Shown here piece after piece: positions 37,180 to 63,165 of a DNA stretch of 64,000 nucleotides. This DNA comes from a virus (taxonomy: Duplodnaviria; Caudoviricetes). The translations under genes and the position numbers were made by a program. Position 1 is the first letter of the stretch. The number at the start of each line of letters is the position of its first letter. The stretch is from IMG/VR virus record IMGVR_UViG_3300002220_000288, positions 33,491-97,490 of that record; one strand, given 5' to 3'. The notes beneath the pieces were generated by a model, which saw only the letters and a program-made list of their open reading frames with translations, made no database searches and had not been told where the DNA came from.

Positions 37180-37339
37180 AGTAGTCTTCCATTCTTTGAT
37201 AGATAGAGGCCGGTTCAGATGAGCCAGCCCAGTTCTTCGCCTCGATCATTACCCCGCCTTGGAGATAGTAGTCGTTTTGGCTAGGATCAGGAACGCCAAT
37301 CCTTGTGAATATGTATCCTTCGGGGTGCATGACATTCAC
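37154..37339 (-). CDS. Hypothetical protein
   Basis: Short ORF within the operon. Confidence 0.45.
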   Translation of the reverse strand: MNVMHPEGYIFTRIGVPDPSQNDYYLQGGVMIEAKNWAGSSEPASIYQRMEDYFGRTKNQS

Positions 37340-37343
37340 TATT

Positions 37344-38000
37344 TTACAAGCCTAGCCAAGCCTTGTCAATGACATCCCACGAAATATCGTACTTATCTTC
37401 ACGGAAATTTGCGTGAGTGCATATGCCTTTCCATTTAGCGTAGAAAGGGACATCGAACTCATTGCGAATCTTTTCGTCGGCTATCCTCTTCTCTATTCCG
37501 AAGCGAGAACACAGGTGGTCAACTAAGACGCCAAGACCGACTTTCTGCTGATCCGTAAACGCGGCGTAGTAACTGTAGCCTCGATAGAATGTCTCAACGT
37601 AAGCGTTCTCGTCTTTCATGTCGCAATACTTGTTGGCGAAATTGTTCGGCCATGAGTACAGTGAGTCCCCCTTCCTCTTTAGGGGTCCGTAGTTGCATAT
37701 CTCAATGCCAATACTGCGTCTGTCGTTAAAATTGATATTGTCTTGCTTCTTGATTCCTAAATGGAGGCTCCAGAGATTAGGGTCGTAAACCTCATAGATA
37801 GCGCCATCGGTATCAAGCAGGTAAGGGGTTGATACGCGATTCTCGTTCTTTTGCCACCAATTAAACGAAGTTCTTGCTCTTCCGCCAGCGGTGAAGTGTA
37901 ATACGATCAGGTCTTTTTCTCTTTGCTGGTTAAAATAGCATTTATTCGATAAACGAAGTGTTTCTTTGTCGATCATAGGCTTGAAGCGTTTAGCATCCAT
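37344..38000 (-). CDS. N-acetylmuramoyl-L-alanine amidase (Amidase_2) endolysin
   Basis: IVLHFTAG, SIGIEI, H....R.DK.D zinc ligands. Confidence 0.88.
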   Translation of the reverse strand: MDAKRFKPMIDKETLRLSNKCYFNQQREKDLIVLHFTAGGRARTSFNWWQKNENRVSTPYLLDTDGAIYEVYDPNLWSLHLGIKKQDNINFNDRRSIGIEICNYGPLKRKGDSLYSWPNNFANKYCDMKDENAYVETFYRGYSYYAAFTDQQKVGLGVLVDHLCSRFGIEKRIADEKIRNEFDVPFYAKWKGICTHANFREDKYDISWDVIDKAWLGL

Positions 38001-43668: not shown

Positions 43669-43947
43669 TTACCTGTTCTGCACCGTCAACTGCAAACTTC
43701 GCCTGTCGATCTCTCCTAAGTTTGTCGTAATCTGGCAGGTGACAGTATAACTCGTCCCATCCACCCCGCCCGAGATGCGGCAAGTGGAAGTGTAACTAGT
43801 GTTAGACTCAGAAACTTTAGTAAGACCAGCCGGGACGGTCCAAGAAGTACTAGAGACTGTCTCATTCGCGCCGAGCCAATCCGTCCAATCAAACGAATAG
43901 TCTAGCGTAGCGCCTGGATCTTTAATGTAGACAAACTCTACCGGCAT
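43669..43947 (-). CDS. Fibre-attachment adaptor protein, probably leaderless
   Basis: KDP...DYSFDW..WL...ETV..S.W, SGG..G..Y.V...ITT..G...R pattern. Confidence 0.7.
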   Translation of the reverse strand: MPVEFVYIKDPGATLDYSFDWTDWLGANETVSSTSWTVPAGLTKVSESNTSYTSTCRISGGVDGTSYTVTCQITTNLGEIDRRSLQLTVQNR

Positions 43948-43954
43948 CAACTAA

Positions 43955-43984
43955 AGGTTATCAATACACTATAGGTAATATCAA
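43955..43984 (-). promoter_or_regulatory. Promoter TTGATA-N18-TAACCT (TGn-extended), 7 nt before ATG
   Basis: tatcaa 43979-43984, aggtta 43955-43960, ATG at 43947. Confidence 0.6.
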
Positions 43985-43987
43985 CAT

Positions 43988-44032
43988 AAATAAAAACGGG
44001 ACCGGCTAAAGGAGAAAAAGCCAGTCCCGTTT
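43988..44032 (-). terminator. Intrinsic terminator with anti-SD loop
   Basis: AAACGGGACTGGCT-N11-AGCCGGTCCCGTTT-TTATTT. Confidence 0.8.
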
Positions 44033-44055
44033 CGGCGCGTCGGCGACCTGTCTAT
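43988..44055 (-). ncRNA. Candidate anti-Shine-Dalgarno sRNA A
   Basis: TGCTATAAT promoter; 14-bp stem (one G-U pair on this strand) with an 11-nt loop UUUUCUCCUUU, then a U-tract; no ORF. Confidence 0.65.
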
Positions 44056-44061
44056 ACGTAC

Positions 44062-44070
44062 ATTATAGCA
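44062..44070 (-). promoter_or_regulatory. Extended -10 promoter TGCTATAAT
   Basis: Perfect TGnTATAAT in an intergenic region. Confidence 0.75.
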
Positions 44071-44290: not shown

Positions 44291-44512
44291 TTAGTCGGTT
44301 TTTGACGACTCCCAAGGGCGCTTTTCAGTCCCAAGAGTGAAATTTGCGTCTAGCCGGATGTCTTTATTCGATAAAGACCAACATTCTCCGCTTTCTTTCA
44401 TGAAAACAACCCAGATCAGGTCATGTTCTTGGCTGTAGTCGATCAAAAAATGAGCAAAACCACGTCCTTTTACGGTCGTGACTGGCAGCGGAGGGTTGAT
44501 CTGGATAATCAC
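44291..44512 (-). CDS. Conserved phage hypothetical protein
   Basis: QINPPLPV.T.KG.G.A..LIDY..EHDL.WV motif. Confidence 0.65.
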   Translation of the reverse strand: MIIQINPPLPVTTVKGRGFAHFLIDYSQEHDLIWVVFMKESGECWSLSNKDIRLDANFTLGTEKRPWESSKTD

Positions 44513-44688
44513 TTAGCCATTTCCGCTGTGTTTCCATAATCCTTATCCCAAATAGGGCACCAATCAGGGCATCCTTTGTCCGCTACCTCGATTGACTTCT
44601 CGTTTTTCGGCATACACATGAAATATGCTTCTGTGGCCGAGACGACTTTAACTGCAAATCCGCATTCATGGCAAGTAGGTGTCTGCAT
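44509..44688 (-). CDS. 59-aa Cys-rich protein, probably leaderless (not in the ORF track)
   Basis: MQTPTCHEC...CPDWCP...; TGGTAAGAT 6 nt before ATG; GTGA overlap with the next gene. Confidence 0.6.
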   Translation of the reverse strand: MQTPTCHECGFAVKVVSATEAYFMCMPKNEKSIEVADKGCPDWCPIWDKDYGNTAEMAK

Positions 44689-44713
44689 GAGTATATCTTA
44701 CCATCTTGAGAGT

Positions 44714-44752
44714 AAAAAGCAAAACCCCCGGCAAAGGAGGAAAGCCGGGGGT
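44714..44752 (-). terminator. Intrinsic terminator with anti-SD loop
   Basis: ACCCCCGGC-N11-GCCGGGGGT-TTTGCTTTTT. Confidence 0.8.
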
Positions 44753-44784
44753 CAAGCCGAAAGGAGGTGATCGAAACAACCTAC
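44714..44784 (-). ncRNA. Candidate anti-Shine-Dalgarno sRNA B (16S 3'-end mimic)
   Basis: TGCTATATT promoter; contains GATCACCTCCTTTC and a terminator with loop UUUCCUCCUUU. Confidence 0.7.
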
Positions 44785-44790
44785 AACTCA

Positions 44791-44799
44791 AATATAGCA
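44791..44799 (-). promoter_or_regulatory. Extended -10 promoter TGCTATATT
   Basis: TGn + TATATT, 11 nt downstream of the upstream gene's stop. Confidence 0.6.
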
Positions 44800-44810
44800 C
44801 AAAGAACTGG

Positions 44811-49849: not shown

Positions 49850-50548
49850 CACCGAACCGAATATTGACAGATAAGGTTGATAATTAAGCCCGATGATTGA
49901 CAATCTTCTTAGGCAAGGTTGACAAGTGCGGTTTTGACCCCCGGCAGGCAATGGTACTAAGGAGAGGGAAGTACTATGGATACAGCTCGAAAATCTGAGT
50001 CAGTTACTGTCAGATTTTTGGCAATATATAGTACCGGGAAGGTCAAAGTACTACGAAATGGCCGGTTCTTTGGCCTAAAACATCCGCTACTCCATAAGCA
50101 GGGTTTATACAACAGCACATAACATATTCTATGCCCATGCCACATAAGTATCGTTTTGCTAGCTAGGGGGGATAGGGTTTGTATAAGTTTGGTTTATGTT
50201 GGGGGATTTTTTCTATAAAAAATTGAAAATATGGTTGTGGAGGCTGCCACCCCCATGCCCGTCCGTCCCTGGCTCACCCCCACCCGCTGCGCCTAAGCCG
50301 CTCGTTTATCGCTGCGCCGGTGTCAACTTCCGTTGTCTTGAGTCTCAGTCTGCGCCGGTTGTCGCTGCTGTCAACTTCCGTTGCCTGGCTTCCCCTGGAG
50401 TGCTGCCGTTTCCCTGGAAGGGCGGCTTCCCCGGCTTCCCCGGCTTCCCATGACGGGCTAATCTTCCCTTCCCCATACGTCGCGCATATACAAGAGATAG
50501 GCTAGGGGGGCATGAAGGATGTTTAATTGTTCTATGCCTAATTAGCTA
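49850..50548. other. Non-coding strand-switch region (candidate terminus, packaging site or origin)
   Basis: Genes diverge here; no credible ORF; short direct repeats and G/C runs. Confidence 0.55.
50287..50449 (+). repeat. Short direct repeats
   Basis: TGTCAACTTCCGTTG at 50321 and 50369; CTGCGCC x3; GGCTTCCC(C) in tandem x3 at 50424-50449, plus one at 50387. Confidence 0.7.
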
Positions 50549-50576
50549 TTGCAATCCCATTCGGTCATGATATTCT
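50549..50576 (+). promoter_or_regulatory. Promoter TTGCAA-N16-TATTCT (TGn-extended)
   Basis: Upstream of the first plus-strand gene. Confidence 0.5.
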
Positions 50577-50596
50577 ATGATGGAAAGGAGTTGCTA

Positions 50597-50776
50597 ATGA
50601 GCAAGCGAATGAGCGACAAGTTCCTGTTGGTGGAATACTCCACCACGATAGGCGGACGTAAAGAGACCTGTATTGATATCGTCAATCCCGGTGATAAGCC
50701 AGAAAAGGGCGGATTCGTTCTGTCAGAACACAACACCATCAAAGAAGCAGAAGAAGCGTATGATGATTGGTTCTAA
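50597..50776 (+). CDS. Hypothetical early protein
   Basis: GAAAGGAG RBS, ATG at 50597. Confidence 0.6.
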   Translation: MSKRMSDKFLLVEYSTTIGGRKETCIDIVNPGDKPEKGGFVLSEHNTIKEAEEAYDDWF

Positions 50777-50789
50777 AGGGAGCGTTAGC

Positions 50790-51002
50790 ATGAAGACGAC
50801 ACGCGAAATGCTACCCGCCTTGGGTGCAAGGGTCCTAATCCATGTTGGCGTGGGTGACCTACTCATGGAGTGCGTCGTACAAGACTACATACAGAGCTGG
50901 GGGAACATCCGTCTGCTGGTTTCGCACGTGGCTACTAGTGGCGCAACGTGGATCGAGCTATCCCGCCTACGTCAATCATCTAATCAATTAGCCTGCCGAT
51001 GA
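50790..51002 (+). CDS. Hypothetical early protein
   Basis: AAGGGAG RBS, start MKTTREM. Confidence 0.55.
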   Translation: MKTTREMLPALGARVLIHVGVGDLLMECVVQDYIQSWGNIRLLVSHVATSGATWIELSRLRQSSNQLACR

Positions 51003-51056
51003 CTAGTCAGACTAGTCTACCGCAATACCAACCAACCAACCATAAAGGAGTCCACA

Positions 51057-51284
51057 ATGGAAGCAAAGAACATGGAACTACTGACACAAGCGGCCAACGA
51101 GGGTATCGCATGGGCAAGATCCCTGAAAATGGGTGATCTGTTTATCGGCGCAATGCCGGAGGCGGAAAAGCACGGATACGCAAAGGATACAAGTGCTTAC
51201 CGTGTCTTCGTTGCTACCGCTGCCGATTTCATGCCTGCCGCTATCACTGTAGACCGGGCTGGTAGGATCATCAAACTTGGATAA
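51057..51284 (+). CDS. Hypothetical early protein (paralog of 58947-59177)
   Basis: TAAAGGAG RBS; shared G..WA..L..GD.F.G..P.AE pattern. Confidence 0.65.
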   Translation: MEAKNMELLTQAANEGIAWARSLKMGDLFIGAMPEAEKHGYAKDTSAYRVFVATAADFMPAAITVDRAGRIIKLG

Positions 51285-51299
51285 AGGAGAATCGAACCC

Positions 51300-51389
51300 A
51301 TGAAGCGCTACCACCTTACCAACCTGCTATTCGATGCTGCCGCGATTGCGTTCTTTGTCGCCTGCCTCATGGCGATTGCAGTGGACTAA
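51300..51389 (+). CDS. 29-aa hydrophobic microprotein
   Basis: TAAAGGAGAA RBS; MKRYHLTNLLFDAAAIAFFVACLMAIAVD. Confidence 0.55.
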   Translation: MKRYHLTNLLFDAAAIAFFVACLMAIAVD

Positions 51390-51438
51390 TCCTGTCAGGT
51401 TAGCCTGTTAGCGGATAGCAGGCTAGAATGATCGGATT
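51388..51438 (+). other. Long intergenic RNA hairpin (RNase III-site-like)
   Basis: TAGCCTGTTA/TAGCAGGCTA upper stem, internal loops, AATCC/GGATT lower stem. Confidence 0.45.
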
Positions 51439-51469
51439 GCCAATTAAGGATTAAAGGAGAATTGCAAAA

Positions 51470-52684
51470 ATGAGACCTGGATCAATCGTCACTACAGACA
51501 CGCCATGCGCCTACAGCGGATATCCCCATGGGGGGATCATCTCCGCTAATACCCCTGGTGTTTGGTCCCCTCGTTATGGAGCGGTAAAGTTCCATCCCGA
51601 GTGCTTAGACCTACGGAAAGGCGAGACCCCGGAAGCCGACAATCCCGCGCCTGTCCCTGGTGAAGATGTTCCCGCCATTCCCGCCGTCCCCGCTCCCGTT
51701 CCAGCTAAGACCGCCGTTAATGCTAATGGCGATGCTGCCAGCCGATTAGCCGCTGCGATCGCGGAGCTAGCCCAATCTGGCACTAAACCCATTGATCGGG
51801 ATGAGGTAGCGGCAATCGTTCGTTCTGAGATCGAAGCCGTAAAGGATACCATCGGCATACGTCGATACGAAGTAACCCGCAAGGATCACCCTGCCGTTGA
51901 TTGCGGCATACAGCACCATTGTTTCCCTCAGGTCCTTGATCTTGTCTGCAATCAAGCCGATTCCTACCTGTGGGGTCCTGCTGGAACGGGCAAAACGCAA
52001 ATGGCGATCAATGCCGCTAAAACCCTAGGGCTATCCGTTGCCGTGCTATCAATGTCACCTCAAACAACAGCAACCAAGCTAGAGGGCTATATGTCGGCCA
52101 ACGGCGAGTATGTCCCAACGGATTTCTACCGGATGTTTAGCAGCGGCGGGGTCTTCATTGTGGACGAACTAGACAACATGAGCGCCAGCGTAGCAACTAC
52201 GCTAAACTCCGCACTCGCCAACAGCTTAGCTAGCTTCCCTTGCGGCACAATCGAACGGCATCCCGATTTCATCTTTGTAGGAACGGGTAACACCGATGGG
52301 CGCGGACCTACTCACCAGTACCCGGAACGGCGAAAGCTCGATTCCGCTACCCTGTCCCGGTTGCGTTTTCTCCGCATCCTGCCCGATACCCAACTCGAAT
52401 TTGCGCTTGCCGTTGCTCACGCTGGCGGTAAAGACGACCAAGCTAAAAAATGGGCTAAGTGGGTGCAGGACGTTCGGGACCATTGGGCTAAGCCGGGTTG
52501 CGGCATAACGGGCACGCTCTACGCCGATATGCGCGCCATTATCACGGGTGCAAAAGAGATCGCAGCACCCTACACTTGGTCATCAATCGAGGGGTTAGCG
52601 GAATCGACGGTCTTCAAGGGACTACCCGCCGATCAATCTAGCCGTGTACTGTCTGCCGTACCGCTACCTCAGGGGGTGCTGTAA
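51470..52684 (+). CDS. MoxR/CobS-like AAA+ ATPase
   Basis: GPAGTGKT, IVDELD, HPDF....GNT.G.G...Y..R..LD.ATL.R. Confidence 0.88.
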   Translation: MRPGSIVTTDTPCAYSGYPHGGIISANTPGVWSPRYGAVKFHPECLDLRKGETPEADNPAPVPGEDVPAIPAVPAPVPAKTAVNANGDAASRLAAAIAELAQSGTKPIDRDEVAAIVRSEIEAVKDTIGIRRYEVTRKDHPAVDCGIQHHCFPQVLDLVCNQADSYLWGPAGTGKTQMAINAAKTLGLSVAVLSMSPQTTATKLEGYMSANGEYVPTDFYRMFSSGGVFIVDELDNMSASVATTLNSALANSLASFPCGTIERHPDFIFVGTGNTDGRGPTHQYPERRKLDSATLSRLRFLRILPDTQLEFALAVAHAGGKDDQAKKWAKWVQDVRDHWAKPGCGITGTLYADMRAIITGAKEIAAPYTWSSIEGLAESTVFKGLPADQSSRVLSAVPLPQGVL

Positions 52685-53559
52685 TGGCCACCAGACCAGA
52701 TAATCGGGTGATCCGCTACGGATCATGGCGACACGTCGCGGACACGCTACAATCCCCTGATCCGGCCTATTACGGCAACGGCAAACAACCTTCAGCCACA
52801 AACAAACCCGCATCGCACGATTGGGACTATAACGCCGGATGGAACGGTACTCTCAAAATGGCGGGTGCGGAGGGATGGCCCGAAGGGTCAGAACGGATCA
52901 AGCGCTACACCGATCGCTACATCGCGCAACTTGCCAGCAAAGTCAAGCTACCAACCTATTACCCGGAGGTAGTAGGGGATTTCTACGACGTGGGGTTGCT
53001 CATGTCTGGTGAACCGGAACACTGGTTACAGCGGGAGGATTCAGACCAATCAACGGCAGCGGCAGGGCGGGTTTACAGGGTAGTGCTAAATATATCTGCA
53101 TCGTGGAACGTTCCACCAGAAACAATCGAACGTAGGGGAGCAGCAGCGGCCGCCCTGGTGCAACTCCTCGAATTAGCAGGACTCACTACCGAATTAACAG
53201 TAGTCTTCGCCGTCAAAAAAGATCAAGCCCGTATGACGGCGGAGATCAATCTCAAGTCTGCCAGCGAACCATTAGATCTGGATCGCCTTGCCCTGGTTGC
53301 CATTCACCCCGCTGGCTTGCGTAGGATCGGTTTCCGGCTAATGGAGATCGACGCTACAGACAACGAACGAGACTACTACGAATACTACAGCAGCGGTCTT
53401 TACGGCTACCCCTGTAACGTGGGGGAGGACGAGCAGGGGGATGTTTACTCGCCGTCCATTAGCAGCGCTTCCCCTACTCCGTTCTCAGCGGACAAAACAA
53501 CCCTAGCATGGATTAAAGAGCAACTCACCCGGCTAGGGGCGATGGGGGAGGGAGCATGA
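52684..53559 (+). CDS. vWA-like partner of the AAA+ ATPase
   Basis: Coupled to the ATPase; DVG..MSGEPE, VVLNISAS (degenerate MIDAS), HP..LRR.GF. Confidence 0.65.
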   Translation: MATRPDNRVIRYGSWRHVADTLQSPDPAYYGNGKQPSATNKPASHDWDYNAGWNGTLKMAGAEGWPEGSERIKRYTDRYIAQLASKVKLPTYYPEVVGDFYDVGLLMSGEPEHWLQREDSDQSTAAAGRVYRVVLNISASWNVPPETIERRGAAAAALVQLLELAGLTTELTVVFAVKKDQARMTAEINLKSASEPLDLDRLALVAIHPAGLRRIGFRLMEIDATDNERDYYEYYSSGLYGYPCNVGEDEQGDVYSPSISSASPTPFSADKTTLAWIKEQLTRLGAMGEGA

Positions 53560-53789
53560 GACGGCGCAACAGCCAATGGAACAAAGGAGGGAGGGTGCAC
53601 ACCCCTCCTCCTGGAGTGAACGCTAACACCCCGCCGCGTGTCCTAGAATCCCGCTACCCCGGCAAGTGTGTATCATGCAAGCGGACGTTTAACGCTGGTG
53701 AAACCATCGCCTATTTTGACCTAATCGGGAAAGCACTCTGCCCACTCTGCACCCGCGTATGGCAGGAGCTAGAAGAAGTAGAGGATTAA
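53556..53789 (+). CDS. Small zinc-finger protein
   Basis: SRYPGKCVSC...GE.I...CPLC. Confidence 0.6.
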   Translation: MRRRNSQWNKGGRVHTPPPGVNANTPPRVLESRYPGKCVSCKRTFNAGETIAYFDLIGKALCPLCTRVWQELEEVED

Positions 53790-53792
53790 CCA

Positions 53793-53981
53793 ATGGGGCT
53801 AGAAAAGAAACCAGACCTTTACGCTATCGACCTGGGAGCAGGGGAAACGGTAGAATCCATGTTCTTTCCCTGCCGGGGGCCGGAGGAGGCGCAAAACGCC
53901 TTTAACGCCTATCTGACCCGCTGCAACCCAATCGAGCGAAGATCCGCCCGTCTGATTTACTGGCAGGGCGGGAACCTTTAA
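53793..53981 (+). CDS. Hypothetical protein
   Basis: GAGGA RBS. Confidence 0.5.
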   Translation: MGLEKKPDLYAIDLGAGETVESMFFPCRGPEEAQNAFNAYLTRCNPIERRSARLIYWQGGNL

Positions 53982-54002
53982 CCGTTAACCAGCAGAAACC
54001 GA

Positions 54003-54031
54003 TTGACAACACGCCCTAACCATCCCATACT
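54003..54031 (+). promoter_or_regulatory. sigma70 promoter TTGACA-N17-CATACT
   Basis: Consensus -35 with 17-nt spacer. Confidence 0.7.
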
Positions 54032-54057
54032 GTAACCAATTAAAGGATAACTAACCA

Positions 54058-54351
54058 ATGTTTCAGACAATCGAGCAAATAAAAGACGCCAATCAAGCGG
54101 CAGGCTACAAGTTTTTCGAGCCTGATACGCTTCGCTTCTTCGACTCCCGCGTCTCAAGCGAGGTATACGGAGGCCGCTACTTCATCACTTCCGAAAAGAG
54201 CGGTTTCAGCTCCACCATCCGCGCCTATACCGTTCGGCGTGCCAATGATGACGGCACGATAACCACGGTCTCCGGCTTCCTGCAATTCCCCACAGCGGCC
54301 AAGGCGCGGACGTTTGCGCGGCGGCTGGCGGATGGCAGCGAGGAGGTCTAA
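54058..54351 (+). CDS. Conserved phage early protein
   Basis: I...N...G..FF...T.RFF.S....YFITSE...R.YTVR pattern. Confidence 0.7.
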   Translation: MFQTIEQIKDANQAAGYKFFEPDTLRFFDSRVSSEVYGGRYFITSEKSGFSSTIRAYTVRRANDDGTITTVSGFLQFPTAAKARTFARRLADGSEEV

Positions 54352-54354
54352 CCA

Positions 54355-54552
54355 ATGGCGACAATTCCTAACCAGTGCTTCATCTCAGTTGGGACAAAGG
54401 GTACAGTGTGGCGCGGCTCCGATGCGGCGCTTGCCGAATCCATGTACGCAGACCTGTGCCGAGCTAACGAGGATAACGGCGTGACCGTAACACTAACCGT
54501 CCGGCGTGGCGAAGCTATCAGCGTTTTTACCAACGCAAAGAAAGTAGCGTGA
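54355..54552 (+). CDS. Hypothetical protein
   Basis: GAGGAGG RBS. Confidence 0.55.
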   Translation: MATIPNQCFISVGTKGTVWRGSDAALAESMYADLCRANEDNGVTVTLTVRRGEAISVFTNAKKVA

Positions 54553-54606
54553 AAGTTTACTGCAATTTTAACAGTAACTTCCGCGAGTAGATTAACCGTT
54601 AACCAC

Positions 54607-54635
54607 TTGACACGAGAAAAGTTCTGCTGTAGCAT
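54607..54635 (+). promoter_or_regulatory. sigma70 promoter TTGACA-N17-TAGCAT
   Basis: Consensus -35 with 17-nt spacer; heads the DUF6948-like / Gly-rich / amidoligase operon. Confidence 0.7.
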
Positions 54636-54695
54636 AGAAGAATAAAGACGGTCCTGGCCGTAACCAGGAAGAAAAGAAAAGGAAAACTACTACTC

Positions 54696-54983
54696 ATGAA
54701 TAACAAGTATGTGATCGTTCGCACCTACAGCGCCGGAGTCTTTGCCGGAACGCTCGTCTCCCGCGAGGGCCGCGAGGTGACGCTAGCCGATGCGCGGCGG
54801 ATCTGGTATTGGGACGGAGCTGCGTCTCTCTCCCAGCTCGCCATGGAAGGGACCAAGAAACCCGGCAACTGTAAGTTCCCCTGCCCGGTTAGCGAGGTCC
54901 TCCTGACAGAAGCGGTCGAGATCATCCCCTGCACGGATGCGGCACGCGCCAGCATTGAATCGGTTCCCGTCTGGTCGGCCTAG
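54696..54983 (+). CDS. DUF6948-like small beta-barrel protein
   Basis: YVIVRTYSAGVFAG.L...G.EV.L.DARRIW.W.GA.SLSQLA..G...EIIPC (family recalled, not searched). Confidence 0.7.
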   Translation: MNNKYVIVRTYSAGVFAGTLVSREGREVTLADARRIWYWDGAASLSQLAMEGTKKPGNCKFPCPVSEVLLTEAVEIIPCTDAARASIESVPVWSA

Positions 54984-55036
54984 TCTCTCTCTCCCGCATA
55001 TTAGCTCAGGCTAGTGTGCGGGGATAGCGGGATTAG
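54980..55036 (+). other. Long intergenic RNA hairpin (RNase III-site-like)
   Basis: 14-bp stem 54992-55005/55010-55023 with 3 G-U pairs, plus lower stem CTAGTCTC/GGGATTAG. Confidence 0.5.
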
Positions 55037-55062
55037 AGTTAACCAGTGGGGGGGGAAAAGCA

Positions 55063-55218
55063 ATGAGCAATAGCGATGAAATCTGTGATTTCAACGCAGA
55101 CGGCTACGGCAATAGCGACGGCTCCGGCAGTGGCGACGGCTACGGCTCCGGCAATGGCTACGGTTACGGCGACGGCGACGGCTCCGGCCTTCAAGACAAA
55201 GGAGGATCTAATGACTAA
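55063..55218 (+). CDS. Gly-rich (GxG) microprotein 1, 51 aa (not in the ORF track)
   Basis: MSNSDEICDFNADGYGNSDGSGSGDGYGSGNGYGYGDGDGSGLQDKGGSND. Confidence 0.6.
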   Translation: MSNSDEICDFNADGYGNSDGSGSGDGYGSGNGYGYGDGDGSGLQDKGGSND

Positions 55219-55468
55219 CGAAGAACACGGCAGCGGCAGCGGCGGCAGCGGTTACGGCCGGGGCTATGGCGACGGCTACGGCAACAGCTCAGGCTTTAAC
55301 AATGGCTCCGGCAGCGGAGGAGGCAGGGGCTACAATAGCGGCTACGGCGACGGCGACGGCGGCGGCCACGGCAGCGGCTTGGGTTTCAGTAACGGCAGCG
55401 GAAGCGTTGACGGAAGCGGTGAGGGCTTAGGTAATAGCAGCGGCAGCGAAGACGGTTGCGGCTACTAA
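55211..55468 (+). CDS. Gly-rich (GxG) microprotein 2, 85 aa
   Basis: AAAGGAGGA RBS; MTNEEHGSGSGG... Confidence 0.7.
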   Translation: MTNEEHGSGSGGSGYGRGYGDGYGNSSGFNNGSGSGGGRGYNSGYGDGDGGGHGSGLGFSNGSGSVDGSGEGLGNSSGSEDGCGY

Positions 55469-55486
55469 GGTAAAGGAGAAAAGCGA

Positions 55487-55744
55487 ATGAATAACGAAGA
55501 ACGCGGCAGAGGTAGCGGGTATAGCGACGGCGACGGCTGCGGCTGGGGATACGGCGACGATATCACCGCTGGCGACGGCTACAGATCCGGCGACGGCTCC
55601 GGCAAAGGCTACGGCACGGCCTACGGCGACGGCGGAGGATGCGACAGCGGCACAGGACACGGCAGCGGCTGGAGCGACGGCTACGGCAAAAACAGAGGAT
55701 ACGGCAACGGCTGGGGCTTCAGCGATGGCGACGGGAAAAGCTAA
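55487..55744 (+). CDS. Gly-rich (GxG) microprotein 3, 85 aa
   Basis: TAAAGGAGAAAAG RBS; MNNEERGRGSGY... Confidence 0.7.
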   Translation: MNNEERGRGSGYSDGDGCGWGYGDDITAGDGYRSGDGSGKGYGTAYGDGGGCDSGTGHGSGWSDGYGKNRGYGNGWGFSDGDGKS

Positions 55745-55762
55745 TACAAAGGAGAAAAGCGA

Positions 55763-56416
55763 ATGTGTTTAATCATTGCATCTAAGACGGGCGAACTACC
55801 CAACAAAGACATTCTAACCCGCGCATGGGACGGGAACCCCCACGGATGGGGCCTCATGACGATGAAGGAGGACCAGCTAACAATCACCAAGGGACTAGCC
55901 AAAGACTCGCTAGAGAAGACCATCAAACAGCAGATAGTCCCCGGCACTCCCTACGTTCTTCATTACCGATGGGCGACTCACGGGCCGAAGACGCGGGATA
56001 ACTGCCACCCGTTTGAAGTAACGCCGTATCTCTACATGGCGCATAACGGAGTCATTAGCGGAATCGACATAACCGATGAGTCCCGATCCGACTCCTACCA
56101 CTTTGCGGCCAAATTAGCGGAGATCGGTCTAGATGAGGACACGCTACAGGAAAAGGAGGTACAGGACTGCATCGCCGATTGGGTAGGCTGGGGAAACAAG
56201 CTTGTCTTTATGGACTCCCAAGGCCGCATAACCATCATTAACGAGGATATGGGCGAGACCGTGGGCAATATCTGGTACAGCAACAACCTTGCCATTGACG
56301 AAGCGGCCTATTGGCGCGAAGAAGCGGCCTACCTCCAGCGACAGCTAGACTGGGTAACGAACGAGTATCAAACATTCCGCGCTATCGACACAGCGATCAG
56401 CGGCGGCGGCAATTAA
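55763..56416 (+). CDS. Class II (Ntn) glutamine amidotransferase 1
   Basis: N-terminal Cys (MCLII), NPHGWG, HYRWATHG, NCHPF, AHNG, SDS. Confidence 0.88.
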   Translation: MCLIIASKTGELPNKDILTRAWDGNPHGWGLMTMKEDQLTITKGLAKDSLEKTIKQQIVPGTPYVLHYRWATHGPKTRDNCHPFEVTPYLYMAHNGVISGIDITDESRSDSYHFAAKLAEIGLDEDTLQEKEVQDCIADWVGWGNKLVFMDSQGRITIINEDMGETVGNIWYSNNLAIDEAAYWREEAAYLQRQLDWVTNEYQTFRAIDTAISGGGN

Positions 56417-56445
56417 CCGATTAACGATTAAAGGAGGATAGCCCC

Positions 56446-57651
56446 ATGCCATGTGACCGTTGTGATGCAGTATCGACAACCCACCGCATCCACGCCGATA
56501 ACGGCGATCCGGTAATGCTGAACGAGGATGAAGAACTAGTTGTTTGTACGCTAGTTTGCGAGGAGTGCCGCGACCGCTTTAACGGAGGGTCTGAGTTGGC
56601 TAATTGCCCGGTTTGCGGGATACTAGTACGGGAGAACGACCTGAGCGATACTCCGGCGACAGCACACCATGAGAGTATCATGTGTTCCCGCTGTGTTAAC
56701 CACCATCTTTTCGTCTGTGTAGCCTGCGATGAGTTGCAGAACAATAGCGAACGCTGGGGGGAATCGGATAACGGGCCTATCTGCATGGGCTGCTCTGATG
56801 ATTACGGAGTCTGTGATTCCTGCGGCTGCGTGAGACCGACAGATGATCTCAGTTATTCCGACCGAAACGGAGAATACTATTGCAGCGGTTGCGACAGGCC
56901 GGAGTCGGAACACGTTCACGATTACTGCTACAAGCCTGCTCCCGTATTCCATGGCTCTCCTAACGGACGGGCTGAAAAAGGCAAGCTGTACTATGGTTGT
57001 GAGCTGGAAGTGGAGCTAAACAACTCAGACATGGACGAAAAAGCGGAGGAGGTTCTTGACAAGCTGGGCGAGGATCACGTTTACCTGAAAGAGGACGGCA
57101 GCATTAACCACGGCTTCGAGATCGTAACCCATCCGCACACCTGGGAGGCTATCACGAAGCTATGGAAAGAGGACTGGTACGACGGCGTAAAGGGCCTAAA
57201 AAGCCACGATACAGACACTTGCGGATTCCATATCCACGTTTCCCGCAAGGAGCTAACCCGGCTGCACATACAAAAAATCGTTGTCTTCATCAATGCGCCG
57301 GAAAACTGGGGGTTTGTGAAGCGGATAGCCCAGCGGGACGCTTCACAATGGGCGGCGCTTAAAACGGGTAAGACGATAGGCAAGTGCGGGACTAGTTACG
57401 ACCGATACGAAGCGGTTAATATCTGTAACGATCACACCATCGAGTTCCGTATCTTTAAGGGAAATCTGAAGCGCGACCGCATACTGAAGAATCTCCAGTT
57501 TGTAAAGGCGACAATCGACTTTACCCGCGACCGAAGCTATCGGGAATTGTCCTCTGATAAGTTCGTCGAATTCGTATCAACCAACCGTAAGGCTTACCCC
57601 GAGCTGCACGCTTTCATAAAGGAGACTGAGAACAATGAGCGAAACAGTTAA
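56446..57651 (+). CDS. COOH-NH2 ligase-type amidoligase 1 with N-terminal CxxC zinc fingers
   Basis: GCELEV, KEDGSI, GFEIVTHP, CGFHIHVS, RYEAVN, TIEFRIFKG. Confidence 0.85.
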   Translation: MPCDRCDAVSTTHRIHADNGDPVMLNEDEELVVCTLVCEECRDRFNGGSELANCPVCGILVRENDLSDTPATAHHESIMCSRCVNHHLFVCVACDELQNNSERWGESDNGPICMGCSDDYGVCDSCGCVRPTDDLSYSDRNGEYYCSGCDRPESEHVHDYCYKPAPVFHGSPNGRAEKGKLYYGCELEVELNNSDMDEKAEEVLDKLGEDHVYLKEDGSINHGFEIVTHPHTWEAITKLWKEDWYDGVKGLKSHDTDTCGFHIHVSRKELTRLHIQKIVVFINAPENWGFVKRIAQRDASQWAALKTGKTIGKCGTSYDRYEAVNICNDHTIEFRIFKGNLKRDRILKNLQFVKATIDFTRDRSYRELSSDKFVEFVSTNRKAYPELHAFIKETENNERNS

Positions 57652-57772
57652 GGGCGACGGCGACGGCTACGGCGACGGCTACGGATATAACGACAGTTCT
57701 GGTCACGGGTTTGGCTGCGGAAATGCAAACGACGACGGCAGCGGGTTTATCGACGGAAGCGGCAACGGATGA
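57635..57772 (+). CDS. Gly-rich (GxG) microprotein 4, 45 aa (not in the ORF track)
   Basis: TAAAGGAGA RBS; MSETVKGDGDGYGDGYGYNDSSGHGFGCG... Confidence 0.6.
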   Translation: MSETVKGDGDGYGDGYGYNDSSGHGFGCGNANDDGSGFIDGSGNG

Positions 57773-57787
57773 GAGAAGGAGCGACTA

Positions 57788-58057
57788 ATGGATAACCTAG
57801 CAAAAGGAACAGCGGAAGGGTTCGGTAATGCCGACTGCTATGGCAGAGGCTCCGGTAATGGCCATGGCTCCGGCTGTACTCACGGAGACGGTTTTGGATG
57901 CGGCCATGGCAAAGGCGGCTCCGGCAGAAGGACTATTTGCGACACAGAGGAGGAGATCTATTCGACGCGAGGATACGGCGGCGGCTGGGCCTTCGGCAAG
58001 GGCGGATCTTCTCATGGAGATGGCCTGTCCCATGAAAGCACTGCCGGTGAGGGGTAA
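57788..58057 (+). CDS. Gly-rich microprotein 5, 89 aa
   Basis: AAGGAG RBS; GRGSGNGHGSGC..GDGFGCGHG. Confidence 0.6.
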   Translation: MDNLAKGTAEGFGNADCYGRGSGNGHGSGCTHGDGFGCGHGKGGSGRRTICDTEEEIYSTRGYGGGWAFGKGGSSHGDGLSHESTAGEG

Positions 58058-58061
58058 CCAC

Positions 58062-58262
58062 ATGGAAAGCAAACCCAGGATCGAGCTAACGGTAAGCGAA
58101 GGACCTAGTGATGCTTACTACACCGGAACAGTTCTAACCATCTACCTAAGCACTATCCCATGGAGTCCTGTATACAGCGAGGACCAAGAGGTAATCGCTA
58201 AGAGGCTCCAGAAGCTAATTGACCAACACATTAGCGAGTTAACCGAAGGACTGGGGCGATGA
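58062..58262 (+). CDS. Hypothetical protein
   Basis: GAGGGG RBS, start MESKPRI. Confidence 0.5.
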   Translation: MESKPRIELTVSEGPSDAYYTGTVLTIYLSTIPWSPVYSEDQEVIAKRLQKLIDQHISELTEGLGR

Positions 58263-58465
58263 GCTTTCACTATCGGCTATGCTGTAACCGCCATCCATGC
58301 GTCATTGACGGGGAAACGATGTTCATGTGCCAGCACACGGTCCCCGCTAGACCGATGGACCTGTGGGGCAATTGGGCCTTCGAGGTAGGAGCGCGGCTCA
58401 AAGAGATCGCCCCAGTCTACACAAAAAAATGGGGATTCATCCCCGCATACGAGAGGACAAGATGA
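58259..58465 (+). CDS. Hypothetical protein
   Basis: ATGA-coupled. Confidence 0.5.
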   Translation: MSFHYRLCCNRHPCVIDGETMFMCQHTVPARPMDLWGNWAFEVGARLKEIAPVYTKKWGFIPAYERTR

Positions 58466-58620
58466 CAGAAAAGCAGGTTTGCGCCATCGCTGCCGTAATC
58501 ATTGTAGCCATGGCCGTAATTTTCAAAGGCGTAATAACCGGAGATCGAGACTTAACCAGAATCGGCATACTCGCCGTTGTCTTAGTGTCTGGATTCGTCG
58601 CTTGGACGGTAAGAGACTAA
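58462..58620 (+). CDS. Small membrane protein (2 TM helices)
   Basis: MTEKQVCAIAAVIIVAMAVIF... Confidence 0.55.
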   Translation: MTEKQVCAIAAVIIVAMAVIFKGVITGDRDLTRIGILAVVLVSGFVAWTVRD

Positions 58621-58648
58621 CCGATTAACCAATAAAAGGAGAACAATC

Positions 58649-58891
58649 ATGGAATCAATCAACGTCAGAACCGCAGACCGCAAGCTCAGAGGCAAGCTGA
58701 AATGGATCGCCGTGTACGTTAACGGCGTACAGTGGTACAGGATCACGGCTTACAAGGGATTGAATAAAGACGCCAATCACGACTTCGCGGCAGCGGAGAC
58801 GGCTAAGGCGATGGGGTGGAGCCAGTGGGCGATTGAGTTAACCCACAAGACACGCTCTGACAGGGAGTGGTTACTGCACAAAGTTCAGTAA
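58649..58891 (+). CDS. Hypothetical protein
   Basis: AAAGGAGAA RBS. Confidence 0.6.
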   Translation: MESINVRTADRKLRGKLKWIAVYVNGVQWYRITAYKGLNKDANHDFAAAETAKAMGWSQWAIELTHKTRSDREWLLHKVQ

Positions 58892-58896
58892 CGGCA

Positions 58897-58926
58897 TTGA
58901 CACAACAGTTTAACCAGTGATAAGAT
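58897..58926 (+). promoter_or_regulatory. Promoter TTGACA-N18-TAAGAT (TGn-extended)
   Basis: Consensus -35 and extended -10. Confidence 0.7.
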
Positions 58927-58946
58927 TCTACATATAGGAGGAATAA

Positions 58947-59177
58947 ATGAACAATCAAGCGGACAACCTGCATGAAGCAATGGTAAGCGGTAAACTCTGG
59001 GCGGCTACCCTGTGCGCCGGGGACCACTTCCCCGGATGTAGGCCCAAGGCGGAAGCCCTCTACCCAAGCAGCAAAGCAAAGGCGGATATGTTTATCACTG
59101 GTGCGCTGGACGTACTCGACCGGACCAACCTCTACGTTAGCGATAACGGAATCATTACCAAGATCGAAAGGACCTAA
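58947..59177 (+). CDS. Hypothetical protein (paralog of 51057-51284)
   Basis: AGGAGG RBS; shared motif. Confidence 0.65.
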   Translation: MNNQADNLHEAMVSGKLWAATLCAGDHFPGCRPKAEALYPSSKAKADMFITGALDVLDRTNLYVSDNGIITKIERT

Positions 59178-59179
59178 TC

Positions 59180-59317
59180 ATGAATGACGCCTATGAATTT
59201 CTTTTTTGCCCGGTGCATGGAGTTTTCTCTGCCCGGAACTGGCCGACACTTGCGCCGATCATGGCGACTAGTGTATCCTATGTTCTACTCTGCTGGAGAA
59301 TGAAGAGAGGAGAATAG
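59180..59317 (+). CDS. 45-aa microprotein
   Basis: AAAGGA RBS; MNDAYEFLFCPVHG...; fills the intergenic gap. Confidence 0.45.
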   Translation: MNDAYEFLFCPVHGVFSARNWPTLAPIMATSVSYVLLCWRMKRGE

Positions 59318-59318
59318 T

Positions 59319-60620
59319 ATGCCTTTTGAATACAACTGCGGTGCGTGCGGGACAGCTTGCAGTGTGAGAGATAGAGATTGGGCATGGACAATAGCTGGCA
59401 ACTACGGGTGGCCAGTAGTTGCCAGCGAAGACGGCAGCCTTAGACCGTTGTCTGGGGATAGCCGTATAGTGTGCCGCCCATGCTGCGATGCTTACTACAG
59501 CAGCATGGGGGAGCGAGTAACCTGCCCGTGCTGCGATAGAAACGTGCGGATTAACGAACTAAGCCATATGCGGCGAGATGTCAGGCCAAGCACCCGCCCA
59601 AGAATTCAGGTCGGCTGCAACCACTGCATTCACGAAGCAACATTTAGCTGCCAGCATTGCGGTGAATACGTAAGCCGGGAGAACAACGAGGGCAGACAAA
59701 CCTCCGGCAACTTCGGGCTTGCTTGCGAAGAGTGCTATCAGAGCTTTTACTCGGAATGTCACAACTGCGGGAACGCTTGCAGGAGCACATACGTCCAGAA
59801 CTGGTACGGAAATCCTTACTGCGAGGAGTGCTATGGGGCCGCAACCGGAGACAAGCCTATCTTTAACTACAGCTTCAAGCCTAAGCCTAAGTTTTTTGGC
59901 TCAAAGCGGCATAACGAAAAAGCCCTTTACTTCGGCTGCGAGCTAGAGGTAGCGGTGGATGGCGACGATGACGACATTGAAGAGAAAGCCGTAGAAGTCG
60001 CGGCGCTAATGAAGGAACGGGCCTATCTAAAGAAGGACTCCAGTATTGGCCGGGGCTTCGAGGTCGTAACCCACCCGCATACCTGGGAAGAGATTCGCAA
60101 GCTATGGCAGGAACAGTGGCACGAAGACATTCTTGGCCTATCCTCCCACACTTCGGGCACCTGCGGGTTTCACGTCCATGTTTCCCGCGCACCACTAACG
60201 AAGATGCATATCCAGAAGATCGTTGTCTTCATTAACGCGCCAGAGAACCATGATCTAGTGAAGACGGTAGCGCAACGGGCTTGCAACAAGTGGGGGATAC
60301 TGAAGGCGGACAAAAAGATCGGCCATTGCAGCCATAGCCAAGAACGCTATGAGGCCGTCAACCTGGAAAACAAGCACACGATTGAGTTTCGCATCTTTCG
60401 CGGCAATATGCGAAAAGACCGGATACTGAAGAACCTGGAGTTCGTCAAAGCCACAATCGACTTCACCCGTGACCGAAGCTACAGGGAACTTTCAGCCGGA
60501 AGATTCCTAGAGTTCGTTAAGGCCAACCAAAAAGAGTTCCCTAACCTCGACGAGTATCTCTCAAGCAGAGCATTTCACCCTAACCCCCGCTATGTCGGGA
60601 CAAGAACCACAGAGAAATAG
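59319..60620 (+). CDS. COOH-NH2 ligase-type amidoligase 2 with N-terminal CxxC zinc fingers
   Basis: GCELEV, KKDSSI, GFEVVTHP, CGFHVHVS, RYEAVN, TIEFRIFRG. Confidence 0.85.
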   Translation: MPFEYNCGACGTACSVRDRDWAWTIAGNYGWPVVASEDGSLRPLSGDSRIVCRPCCDAYYSSMGERVTCPCCDRNVRINELSHMRRDVRPSTRPRIQVGCNHCIHEATFSCQHCGEYVSRENNEGRQTSGNFGLACEECYQSFYSECHNCGNACRSTYVQNWYGNPYCEECYGAATGDKPIFNYSFKPKPKFFGSKRHNEKALYFGCELEVAVDGDDDDIEEKAVEVAALMKERAYLKKDSSIGRGFEVVTHPHTWEEIRKLWQEQWHEDILGLSSHTSGTCGFHVHVSRAPLTKMHIQKIVVFINAPENHDLVKTVAQRACNKWGILKADKKIGHCSHSQERYEAVNLENKHTIEFRIFRGNMRKDRILKNLEFVKATIDFTRDRSYRELSAGRFLEFVKANQKEFPNLDEYLSSRAFHPNPRYVGTRTTEK

Positions 60621-60632
60621 AGGAGAAAAGAA

Positions 60633-61602
60633 TATGTGCTTAATCATTGCATCGCCTACCGGAGAAGTCCCCACTTGCGGGGTAATCGAGCGCGGCTGGA
60701 ACGATAACCCGCATGGATGGGGACTCATGCAGTCAGACGGCTCCGAACTAATCGTCAACAAAGGCATGAAGTTCAACGAACTACAGCCGCTACTTGAAAA
60801 AGCGAAGGGCAACCCCTACGTCCTGCACTACCGCTTCGCCACCCACGGCACCAAGAACCTCGACAACTGCCACCCGTTTCGCGTTACTAAGCGGCTTTAC
60901 ATGGCACACAACGGCATCATTGCAATCGAGCAGAAGAATAAGCTAATGTCGGACACTTGGCATTACGCCCAAGAGTTGCGACAGCTTGGGATCGACCACG
61001 ATAATGTCAGCGACGAAGAGATTATCTCCATGCTGGGCACCTGGGTAGGCAACTACAACAAGCTAGCCTTCCTTTCCGACTCCGGCAATATCACGCTGGT
61101 TAACGAGAAGTCAGGCACCTGGAAAGATGGCATCTGGTACAGCAATACGCACTCGTTCTACGAACAGGTTGAATACACCCGGTACAGCAGGTATTACTCC
61201 CACCACTACCAGCAGCGGCAGGCGAGTTGGGACTGGGACAAGTACAACGAACCGGATCAGGCTTGGGTTCGCGGCTGGGATATCCCTACCCAGAACAGCG
61301 GGAAGATGACCAAAGGCGACATCATTACCGCTCAAGACCTGAAAACCTGGGAGGACGGCTCCGACATCTGGGCGCATTGCGAGTATTGCAACGAGCTTGA
61401 CTGGTTAGATATCGTTCCAGAGTGCGACGACATGACGCTCTGTGTCCCATGCCGCAAGGTGCTAACCCCACTGTTCCAGACCGATCAGCCGGAGGGCCTC
61501 AACGCCGGGGTCTTCTATGACAGCAACGGAGTTCCCTATTCTTGGGACGACGTGGACGAGAGCATCGCCGTTGTACGCCAAGCCTACGAATGGCGGAGCT
61601 AA
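60633..61602 (+). CDS. Class II (Ntn) glutamine amidotransferase 2 with a C-terminal extension
   Basis: True start MCLIIASP at 60633 (AGGAGAAAA RBS); HYRFATHG, NCHPF, AHNG; C-terminal CxxC..CxxC. Confidence 0.87.
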
Positions 61603-61607
61603 CAGTC

Positions 61608-62024
61608 ATGTCATATCGGGTAACGGTAATCGCAGACTTCAACGGCAATATGTATGTAGGGGCGGACAAGCGGCCAATCGCGCTTGCCGCCGCCTCCCCT
61701 ATCGCAGAGGTAAAGCTGTACAGCAGCCAGCTACGCTTCGCTGTATCAGCTAAAGACGAAAGCGGCAGGGTATTCGTAACGACACGAAGGAAGGCCGCTA
61801 AGAACGGCTGGACCCTTCTTCGAGATGCCGATAACAAGGACATCAGCGAATACGAACAGCAAGACCCGAAGCCAGTAGTCGCATCCCTCGCTGCCGTGCA
61901 AAAGATCAGACACTCAGCAATGGCAGATGGCATCGAGTGGTGCGCCATGCAACTTCCTGACACTCTCAAGCTAGTCAGAGATGAATGGGTGAAGGAGGCT
62001 GGCAAGCTAAGGGGCGATTCGTGA
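61608..62024 (+). CDS. Hypothetical protein
   Basis: GGAG RBS, start MSYRV. Confidence 0.55.
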   Translation: MSYRVTVIADFNGNMYVGADKRPIALAAASPIAEVKLYSSQLRFAVSAKDESGRVFVTTRRKAAKNGWTLLRDADNKDISEYEQQDPKPVVASLAAVQKIRHSAMADGIEWCAMQLPDTLKLVRDEWVKEAGKLRGDS

Positions 62025-62323
62025 CAAGAAAAGAACTTGTCGAATGGGCAAAGAGGCGCGGCTGGAAGAGTGAGCGCGTGGGATTGGGGAGCGGCAAGTC
62101 TAAGCTAATAGTTAGCTGCTACATAAAACTCTCTCTTCACAACCACAGGATGAGGGCTTACAACAAAGTCGTTATCTTCGAGACCGAAAAGGAAGGCCGC
62201 TGGAAAGAGATAAAGACTTGGGAGCTAGGCAGGCTCAGGGTGGCGGCTAACGGAAACATCATAGAGGTAAAGAGAGATGAGCATCAGGGATCGACTGTTA
62301 AACCTTCAGTTCAATTCAATTGA
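62021..62323 (+). CDS. Hypothetical basic protein
   Basis: GTGA-coupled start. Confidence 0.5.
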   Translation: MTRKELVEWAKRRGWKSERVGLGSGKSKLIVSCYIKLSLHNHRMRAYNKVVIFETEKEGRWKEIKTWELGRLRVAANGNIIEVKRDEHQGSTVKPSVQFN

Positions 62324-62510
62324 CAGTTTCCCGTGGCGCGATGATTCGGTCCCGGCAGGCGTCGTATTATTATTCCCTAATGGTGAGCCAATCTTAATCG
62401 GTCACGACTTACAAGGGTCTGTATCCACGCACTTCACCGGGGGGCTTCCCTGGAAAGATCAACTAACCCCAGACTCAGGGATAAAGTGGGCCTGGGTGAT
62501 TAACGAATAA
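62277..62510 (+). CDS. Hypothetical protein
   Basis: GAGG RBS. Confidence 0.5.
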   Translation: MSIRDRLLNLQFNSIDSFPWRDDSVPAGVVLLFPNGEPILIGHDLQGSVSTHFTGGLPWKDQLTPDSGIKWAWVINE

Positions 62511-62522
62511 AAGGAGACCAAT

Positions 62523-62900
62523 ATGAAATACGCACAAGCAGCAAAGCACTTTCCCAAAGCTATCGAAGCAATGCTCGAATTGGACAGCAAGGAGGAAGTG
62601 ACAAGAGAAAAGGCGCTGGGCAGATGGAACAAGATCGACTTGGAGATTCAGCGGGAATTCATGTCTAACCCTGAAGCAATGACCCAGATTGCGCTAATGG
62701 CAGACGGGTTCATGATGTCACTTACGGAAACAGTAGAAAAGATCAACTCACTGCCGCAAGACGACGACACTTACAAGTCAGCTTCCCTTCTCTACTTGGA
62801 ATTGATAACCTCCGCTATTGTTCGTTCGTTTGCGATCGGCGTTCACTGCCAGCGAGAAGTCTCTGAAGTCGAACTTCTGAACTCTCTTGTGGAGAAGTAG
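62523..62900 (+). CDS. Hypothetical helical protein
   Basis: AAAGGAGA RBS. Confidence 0.6.
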   Translation: MKYAQAAKHFPKAIEAMLELDSKEEVTREKALGRWNKIDLEIQREFMSNPEAMTQIALMADGFMMSLTETVEKINSLPQDDDTYKSASLLYLELITSAIVRSFAIGVHCQREVSEVELLNSLVEK

Positions 62901-63147: not shown

Positions 63148-63165
63148 GCTTCCTCAAATTTGGGG

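Follow-up and report, generated by a model that had tools for sequence, protein, structure and literature searches.

Why would a phage carry, in a short gap between two of its genes, an exact copy of the 3' end of bacterial 16S rRNA? The question is raised by a 14-nt word, GATCACCTCCTTTC, for which we observed one exact copy on the minus strand (44759-44772), the only one both in the 64 000-nt stretch of DNA analyzed here (the window) and in the 97.5-kb virus record to which it belongs; by a uniform-base estimate about 5e-4 exact 14-mer matches would be expected in the window by chance. A sequence-only reading of this locus had described the word as an exact match to the common 16S terminus, had placed it in a minus-strand small RNA together with a second anti-Shine–Dalgarno (anti-SD) element, and had proposed that this RNA binds ribosome binding sites (RBSs) in a bivalent manner. 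The sequence is as it was described there, and the same word forms the mature 16S 3' tail that Table 1 of PMC6288834 gives for many bacteria, among them Listeria, Streptococcus, Lactococcus, Campylobacter, Neisseria and Deinococcus.

The locus and its surroundings

The virus is an uncultured freshwater phage of lytic type, and the window covers bases 33491-97490 of its linear IMG/VR record, which is estimated to be 78% complete. Among cultured phages we found no near relatives, only distant matches at the level of the terminase. As a clue to the host, one of the neighbouring genes has its sole genomic match in a distant prophage-like locus of a Methylococcales MAG. A search of the whole record revealed no tRNA genes, and the SSU model RF00177 found no rRNA gene anywhere in the 97 kb, while all control genomes matched. 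The flanks of the 14-mer, moreover, differ from helix 45. With neither an SSU match in the record nor an Rfam match we rejected an rrn fragment as the origin of the word, in line with the earlier claim.

The word lies in a unit, referred to as unit B, that fills the 122-nt gap between two minus-strand genes (Table 1). The stop of the methyltransferase-like gene is located 10 nt ahead of the promoter box of the unit. The syntenic block runs in the order methyltransferase, unit B, 59-aa gene, 73-aa gene, small HTH gene, a sister unit (unit A), gp77-like tail adaptor and late genes, and the Gp77-matching gene marks the start of the structural module.

Table 1. Positions of the features discussed in the text (window coordinates)
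Feature	Position	Strand	Sequence or basis
Class I SAM methyltransferase-like gene, 201 aa	44811..45416	-	Pfam Methyltransf_23, E = 2.7e-10
Extended -10 box of unit B	44791..44801	-	TGTGCTATATT (TGTG-C-TATATT); sequence and conservation
Predicted non-coding RNA 'sRNA B', ~71 nt	44714..44784	-	inferred start to end of U-tract
16S-tail-like single-stranded word	44759..44772 (44772-44759)	-	GAUCACCUCCUUUC
Intrinsic terminator hairpin of unit B, 9-10 bp GC stem	44724..44752	-	ACCCCCGGC / loop UUUCCUCCUUU / GCCGGGGGU
U-tract of unit-B terminator	44714..44723	-	UUUGCUUUUU
-10-like element, 6 nt, ATG of 59-aa CxxC gene	44686..44703	-	TGG-TAAGAT; leaderless geometry directly after terminator
59-aa CxxC gene, 3' neighbour of unit B	44509-44688	-	
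Candidate sister unit 'sRNA A', ~65-nt body	43988..44070	-	promoter CTGACC-17-TGCTATAAT and terminator
First gene after unit A	43669-43950	-	Pfam Gp77, podophage GP4 fibre-tail adaptor, E = 3.5e-27

Unit B reads as a candidate small RNA gene

The predicted RNA, sRNA B, was given its 5' end at G 44784, a start inferred 7 nt past the -10 box. The -35 element of the promoter is weak in the window (CTCCAA) but good in relatives, namely TTGCAA in L004 and TAGACA in L102. At the other end the terminator hairpin has a loop of 11 nt (44733-44743) that carries a CCUCC, which is the second anti-SD element of the earlier claim. The predicted fold of sRNA B reaches -27.4 kcal/mol (z = -3.6), and not one of 200 shuffled sequences folded as well. 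According to the same kind of prediction the 5' word has a mean probability of being unpaired of 0.67 and the terminator loop one of 0.92, with all CU motifs lying between 0.67 and 0.92; both anti-SD elements are thus predicted to be mostly single-stranded, as had been supposed. Unit B thereby contains two exposed pyrimidine-rich motifs, one of them in the terminator loop, and the relatives show the same redundancy.

We also searched for other contents of the gap. On the plus strand neither GGAGG is followed by an ATG, GTG or TTG at a usable spacing, in agreement with the sequence-only reading, and an SD serving a micro-ORF was rejected on this ground. An open reading frame across the unit was rejected as well, because unit B and its counterpart in L002 differ in length by 7 nt, which would frameshift any spanning frame; from this indel we regard the unit as non-coding. 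Rfam returned no match for unit B at the gathering score, and at relaxed thresholds the best matches scored 18-24 bits compared to thresholds of 49-55, so that nothing rose above chance. No covariance model matched the unit, be it that of LhrC, RsaE, 6C, alpha-r14 or any other family. Taken together, the promoter-to-terminator architecture of unit B reads as a candidate small RNA gene of the type-I 3'-UTR kind.

Conservation points to a short exposed motif

Using a pattern search and protein-anchored searches we found this syntenic block again in relatives among uncultured freshwater viruses: L002 (protein identity to the window ~93%), L004 and L102 (~80%), and L103 and L104-106 (~68%). Of these, L002, L004 and L102 share unit B with the window, whereas L103 and L104-106 lack it; the units as a whole are carried by only about five independent genomes. 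In all four copies of unit B the element TGTG.TA.ATT is invariant, though the upstream gene differs between lineages, and the alignment also keeps part of the 5' segment and the terminator, after which a -10-like hexamer stands at 6 nt from the ATG. The stems, on the other hand, differ by lineage (ACCCCCGGC versus AGCCCUCGAC or GCCCUCG), while the loops of all four genomes are 11-16 nt long, rich in C and U and equipped with CCUCC (in L004 stem AGCCCUCGAC bears the loop UCCCCUCCCUCCG; the loop of L102 is CCCCCCUCCUUCCGGU). A block of 58 nt is 100% identical between the window and L002, but as evidence of selection this identity is weakened by two further 58-nt bins that are also 100% identical. 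With its recurrence in three relatives the gene looks real, which supports, at the level of sequence from which its transcription and function are predicted, the claim of an independent, non-coding minus-strand unit reaching from promoter to terminator.

The 14-nt identity behaves differently from the rest of the unit. The 16S-like word sits in a 17-nt insertion that occurs only in the lineage of the window and L002. In L002 the word is AUAGCACCUCCUUUC, which matches over 11 nt, the portion common to the window being CACCUCCUUUC; in the alignment of the four unit-B copies, L004 and L102 have no anti-SD word at this position. The full 14-nt identity is therefore private to this phage and not a conserved trait; most likely an anti-SD word of 11 nt was extended in one lineage, rather than a copy of rRNA being selected. 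What selection is keeping, as judged from the aligned copies, is the exposed CUCC(UUU) motif and not a copy of the 16S end. Here we had to part from the sequence-only reading: its orientation, its unit, its two exposed anti-SD elements and its non-coding character stand, but the 16S copy as the selected feature does not. This calls for caution, as the most striking trait of the locus, the 14-nt identity with 16S rRNA, is not what evolution retains; the short exposed CUCCUUU core is. Perhaps by coincidence, the private part of the 14-mer (44759-44772) also gives rise to a GATC site, and two methyltransferase genes lie immediately upstream of it.

For comparison we analyzed about 100 other phage loci that share the 73-aa gene. 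None of the ~70 terminator-like hairpins found there has a CTCC loop, and most of them have tetraloops. Likewise, no unit of promoter plus CU motif was found outside the clade among these 100 loci, where ordinary terminators occur instead. A wider family was consequently rejected, and the element is confined to a small clade. In L104 (positions 170-200; also in L105 and L106), where unit B is missing, the sequence UUUCUCCCCUU stands shortly before the next gene in the small space that follows the methyltransferase stop; the CU motif may persist here as a remnant or in minimal form.

A sister unit retains the motif in changing positions

Unit A lies 730 nt downstream of unit B, and nowhere in the genome is there a better sigma70-type match than its promoter. 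Its terminator loop reads UUUUUCUCCUUUA (44007-44019). In L002 the stem of unit A shows compensatory changes, and the loop there has CCUCC in place of UCUCC, a shift that the early RBSs do not follow. Unit A was also found in L004, L102, L103 and L104-106, each time with a near-consensus promoter (TTGACG or TTGACA, 17 nt, TG.TA...T). In the window and L002 the terminator loop carries the motif of the unit, UUCUCCUUU, whereas L004, L102, L103 and L104-106 have it in the 5' single strand (as UCUCUCCUUUU in L104) and their terminator loop is without it. Since the motif occupies either the loop or the 5' single strand depending on the lineage, it has been retained while its structural position turned over. 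We counted eight sense-strand copies of CTCCTTT in the 59.7-kb minus arm, three of which fall in units A and B, although these comprise only about 140 nt together. The motif is therefore more frequent in the units than expected by chance.

Shine–Dalgarno use differs between the genome arms

On the plus-strand arms (G000 1-23917 and window 50190-64000) lie a glutamine-amidotransferase/amidoligase cluster and the genes for replication, one of them initiator-like. Small genes, methylases and units A and B come first in the minus-strand arm (window -9520 to 50145), and the structural genes follow. We refer to these arms as early and late, labels that are inferred from gene content. With gene starts taken from crude longest-ORF or best-SD calls, the median predicted SD pairing in G000 was -7.5 and -8.4 kcal/mol for plus compared to -5.8 and -4.75 kcal/mol for minus (Mann–Whitney p = 9e-5), and in the relative G001 it was -7.3 compared to -5.85 kcal/mol (p = 0.012). 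The hexamer AAGGAG was counted 37 times per 37.7 kb on plus and 14 times per 59.7 kb on minus in G000, 29 times per 42.8 kb and 20 times per 60 kb in G001, and 37 times per 44.9 kb and 13 times per 48.5 kb in G002, so that its density is 2- to 4-fold higher in the early arms of all three genomes. The replication and amidoligase arms thus use strong AAAGGAG sites whereas the structural arm is near background, and the same contrast is seen in two relatives, G001 and G002.

Of the extended SD forms of G000 and G001 the commonest is AAAGGAGAA, which complements UUCUCCUUU exactly. Early TIRs of the phage are of the types AAAGGAGAA and AAAGGAGGU, and the CU motifs of the units complement early RBSs of the class AAAGGAG(A/G)A. 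This complementarity is weak evidence, because any anti-SD motif pairs with any SD.

At three operon starts on the minus strand, two of which follow the units (44686-44703 and 43947-43976) while the third is at 37341 (~37334-37370), we observed a -10-like hexamer 5-7 nt before the ATG and no SD, a geometry that would suit leaderless messages. Ahead of the 59-aa gene it takes the form TGCTAAGAT-6-ATG in L002, TAGAAT-6-ATG in L004 and L102 and TAGAAT-7-ATG in L103. The leaderless-start geometry is conserved in L002, L004, L102 and L103, and for the gp77-like gene also in L104-106; the start of this gene is composed of a -35 (TTGAGA/TTGATA), 18 nt, a -10, 7 nt and the ATG.

Two further elements were recognized in the arms. 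At their convergence lies a bidirectional tetraloop terminator, AAAGGGGGC-CTAA-GCCCCCTTT (G000:C1:23947-23968, window -9543 to -9522), which is identical in three genomes (also G001:79189-79210 and G002:65398). The other is found upstream of the window (L124:707-900 = G000:C1:9506-9699) and comprises four iteron-like copies of the inverted repeat AACCCTCCTCCGGYAAAGGAGGG with TATATATATA / an A-rich tract behind them. The repeats lie within the linker of a 469-aa winged-helix-like gene, and since iterons in a gene linker correspond to the O/ori arrangement of lambda, this is probably a replication origin. The G001 orthologue of the 469-aa gene has different iterons, CCTCACCTCCAGCAGAGGTGA, in the equivalent place.

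A possible RBS-masking RNA

Our best explanation, which we hold with some reserve as a little short of probable, is that sRNA B, like sRNA A of the sister unit, is a trans-acting small RNA that masks RBSs in the manner of LhrC and the C-rich-loop RNAs. Transcription would start from an extended -10 promoter of host type, which overlaps the upstream gene at its end, and would yield an RNA of ~70 nt that ends at the strong intrinsic terminator. The RNA would display CUCC(UUU) unpaired, both in its 5' single strand and in its unusually large terminator loop. These CU motifs would pair with the SD regions (AAAGGAG...) of mRNAs and would in this way block binding of the 30S subunit. As the likeliest targets we consider the phage's own SD-rich early-arm genes and/or host mRNAs, and the SD-poor, leaderless-start arm that carries the units would be spared. 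The reading builds on features that we observed directly, i.e. the anatomy of the unit, the exposure of its motifs in the predicted folds, the conservation of the motif through replacement of stems and repositioning, and the SD contrast between the arms. Transcription, action in trans and the targets of sRNA B are what we infer.

By a duplex scan within the phage we found no distinct target: the best non-self duplexes of the 5' word, at -27.7 kcal/mol, head a continuum that extends to about -24 kcal/mol. A unique mRNA target inside the phage was rejected, as nothing stood out from this background. The explanation could also be taken further, to abundant RNAs which imitate the 16S tail, mask SDs generally in the host and in the phage's replication arm, and redirect ribosomes to the SD-poor structural arm. 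This would amount to an RNA-based, genome-wide switch from early to late translation, which follows the logic of RegB by base pairing, and we consider it distinctly unlikely.

Comparison with known systems

The closest parallel is found in LhrC1-5 of Listeria monocytogenes, which have CUCCC...UUUU motifs in loop A, in a single strand and in the terminator loop, each of which binds the SD region of lapB (PMC4132741). Like these RNAs, sRNA B would be a short RNA with redundant CU-rich motifs in a single strand and in the terminator loop, an arrangement that blocks translation of the target in LhrC. With this direct precedent the bivalent RBS binding proposed in the sequence-only reading is plausible for candidate sRNA B. 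Unlike LhrC, however, it shows no relationship in sequence or in Rfam, its motif is CCUCCUUU or UCUCCUUU instead of UCCC, it is encoded by a phage, and it has one hairpin rather than two. Exposed loop motifs also act as anti-SD seeds in the C-rich-loop sRNAs of Firmicutes, among them RsaE/RoxS, the RNAIII hairpins, SprD and FsrA (PMC4132741), but those are chromosomal or located on pathogenicity islands and have defined regulons, whereas here the candidate targets would be phage early genes.

The cuckoo RNAs or alpha-r14 family (CcsR1-4, NfeR1) are described as multicopy RNAs with variable stems and conserved CCUCCUCCC loops (PMC4615179). The units are similar in their variable stems, in their CCUCC-type anti-SD loop and in being multicopy, and the loops of L004 and L102, CCCCUCCCUCC and CCCCCCUCCUUCC, look similar as well. 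They differ in that the exact CCUCCUCCC is absent from the window, that no Rfam match was obtained and that each unit has one hairpin. While the cuckoo family is defined by CCUCCUCCC in the loops of at least two hairpins, the loops in the window are UUUCCUCCUUU and UUUUUCUCCUUUA. Unit B is no homologue of LhrC, RsaE, 6C or the cuckoo RNAs, yet by analogy it would work as they do. A more distant parallel is the RegB endoribonuclease of T4, which cuts GGAG in early messages (PMC1702504). Because RegB recognizes the stereotyped GGAG-type SD of these messages, early mRNAs are inactivated. Only the logic is shared, RegB being a protein nuclease that needs S1 and the element proposed here an RNA that would act by base pairing.

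Alternative explanations

The unit might instead act in cis. In this case the unit-B promoter would serve the module of the 59-aa gene, the terminator would be a promoter-proximal checkpoint with conditional or antiterminator-dependent read-through, and the CU-rich motif would be an element recognized in cis by a protein or an RNA. Several observations fit such a leader or attenuator: the promoter stands 60-70 nt ahead of a strong terminator and right before a gene module, unit B and the 59-aa gene travel together in two genomic contexts, and in L103 the promoter and CU motif of unit A are followed by an ORF with no detectable terminator in between, for which reason this stretch resembles a 5' UTR. 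A similar arrangement is the PR'-6S RNA-tR' region of phage lambda, in which a constitutive promoter is followed by a terminator tens to hundreds of nucleotides on, before the late genes, and a short terminated RNA results. Unit B shares this promoter-plus-terminator layout; unlike in lambda, however, the late operon has its own promoter past the terminator, which argues against a Q-type antitermination cassette. In five of the six genomes a -10-like hexamer follows each terminator at a fixed distance of 6-7 nt from the ATG, suggesting that the downstream genes have a leaderless start of their own. No alternative antiterminator pairing outcompetes the terminator in the predicted folds, and a Q-like or N-like gene, a Q-binding element or a pause signal was not identified, albeit without a systematic search. 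We consider action in cis a minor possibility. It is unlikely, too, that both units are plain intrinsic terminators which close the upstream operons and whose pyrimidine loops and promoter-like boxes are incidental or serve the efficiency of termination. Units A and B do belong to the only about three strong intrinsic terminators of the 97-kb genome, they are placed at operon borders, and the situation in G001 is the same. But a loop of 11-16 nt is not typical of a terminator, tetraloops being used in relatives outside the clade; CCUCC was kept while the stems were replaced; and the motif of unit A lies outside the hairpin in four lineages. Immediately upstream, moreover, near-consensus promoters (TTGACG-17-TGCTATATT) have been conserved although their spacers vary.

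The identity that drew attention to the locus would be most directly explained by a true mimic of the 16S 3' tail. Such an RNA would compete with the 30S subunit for all SDs or act as a decoy for a factor that recognizes the tail (S1, S21, IF3, a tail-processing RNase or an rRNA-targeting toxin), and translation would be shifted towards leaderless, SD-independent phage messages. The match of 14 out of 14 nt to a widespread 16S tail is in accordance with this, as is the finding that the arm bearing the units is poor in SDs and that its operons start with leaderless geometry. We nevertheless regard a mimic as quite improbable, given that the full 14-mer is private to one phage and shrinks to 11 nt in L002 and to nothing in L004 and L102, that the conserved core CUCCUUU is shorter than recognition specific to the tail would need, and that titration of all cellular SDs demands very high RNA levels. 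A role of the plus strand or of the DNA itself, be it as the SD of a micro-ORF, as a CsrA-type GGA decoy or as a site related to the CCTCC/GGAGG iterons of the origin, appears highly improbable. The loops do read AAAGGAGGAAA on the plus strand, and 13 nt of unit B, CCGGCAAAGGAGG, are also found in an origin-like iteron, but for this 13-mer a match is expected at E ~0.8. Moreover, neither of the plus-strand SDs has a start codon after it, and the neighbouring genes, the U-tract and a G-U pair all favour the minus strand. The iterons of G001 have changed to CCTCACCTCCAGCAGAGGTGA and the loops of its units did not follow, which led us to reject a mimic of the origin-like repeats.

Implications

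Small RNAs of lytic phages whose function is known are, to our knowledge, few. If sRNA B acts as an RBS-masking RNA, this phage would employ such RNAs either for the timing of its own programme or for switching off translation of the host. The combination of SD-rich arms with an SD-poor, leaderless-start arm in one phage would offer a compact system for studying SD-dependent versus SD-independent initiation.
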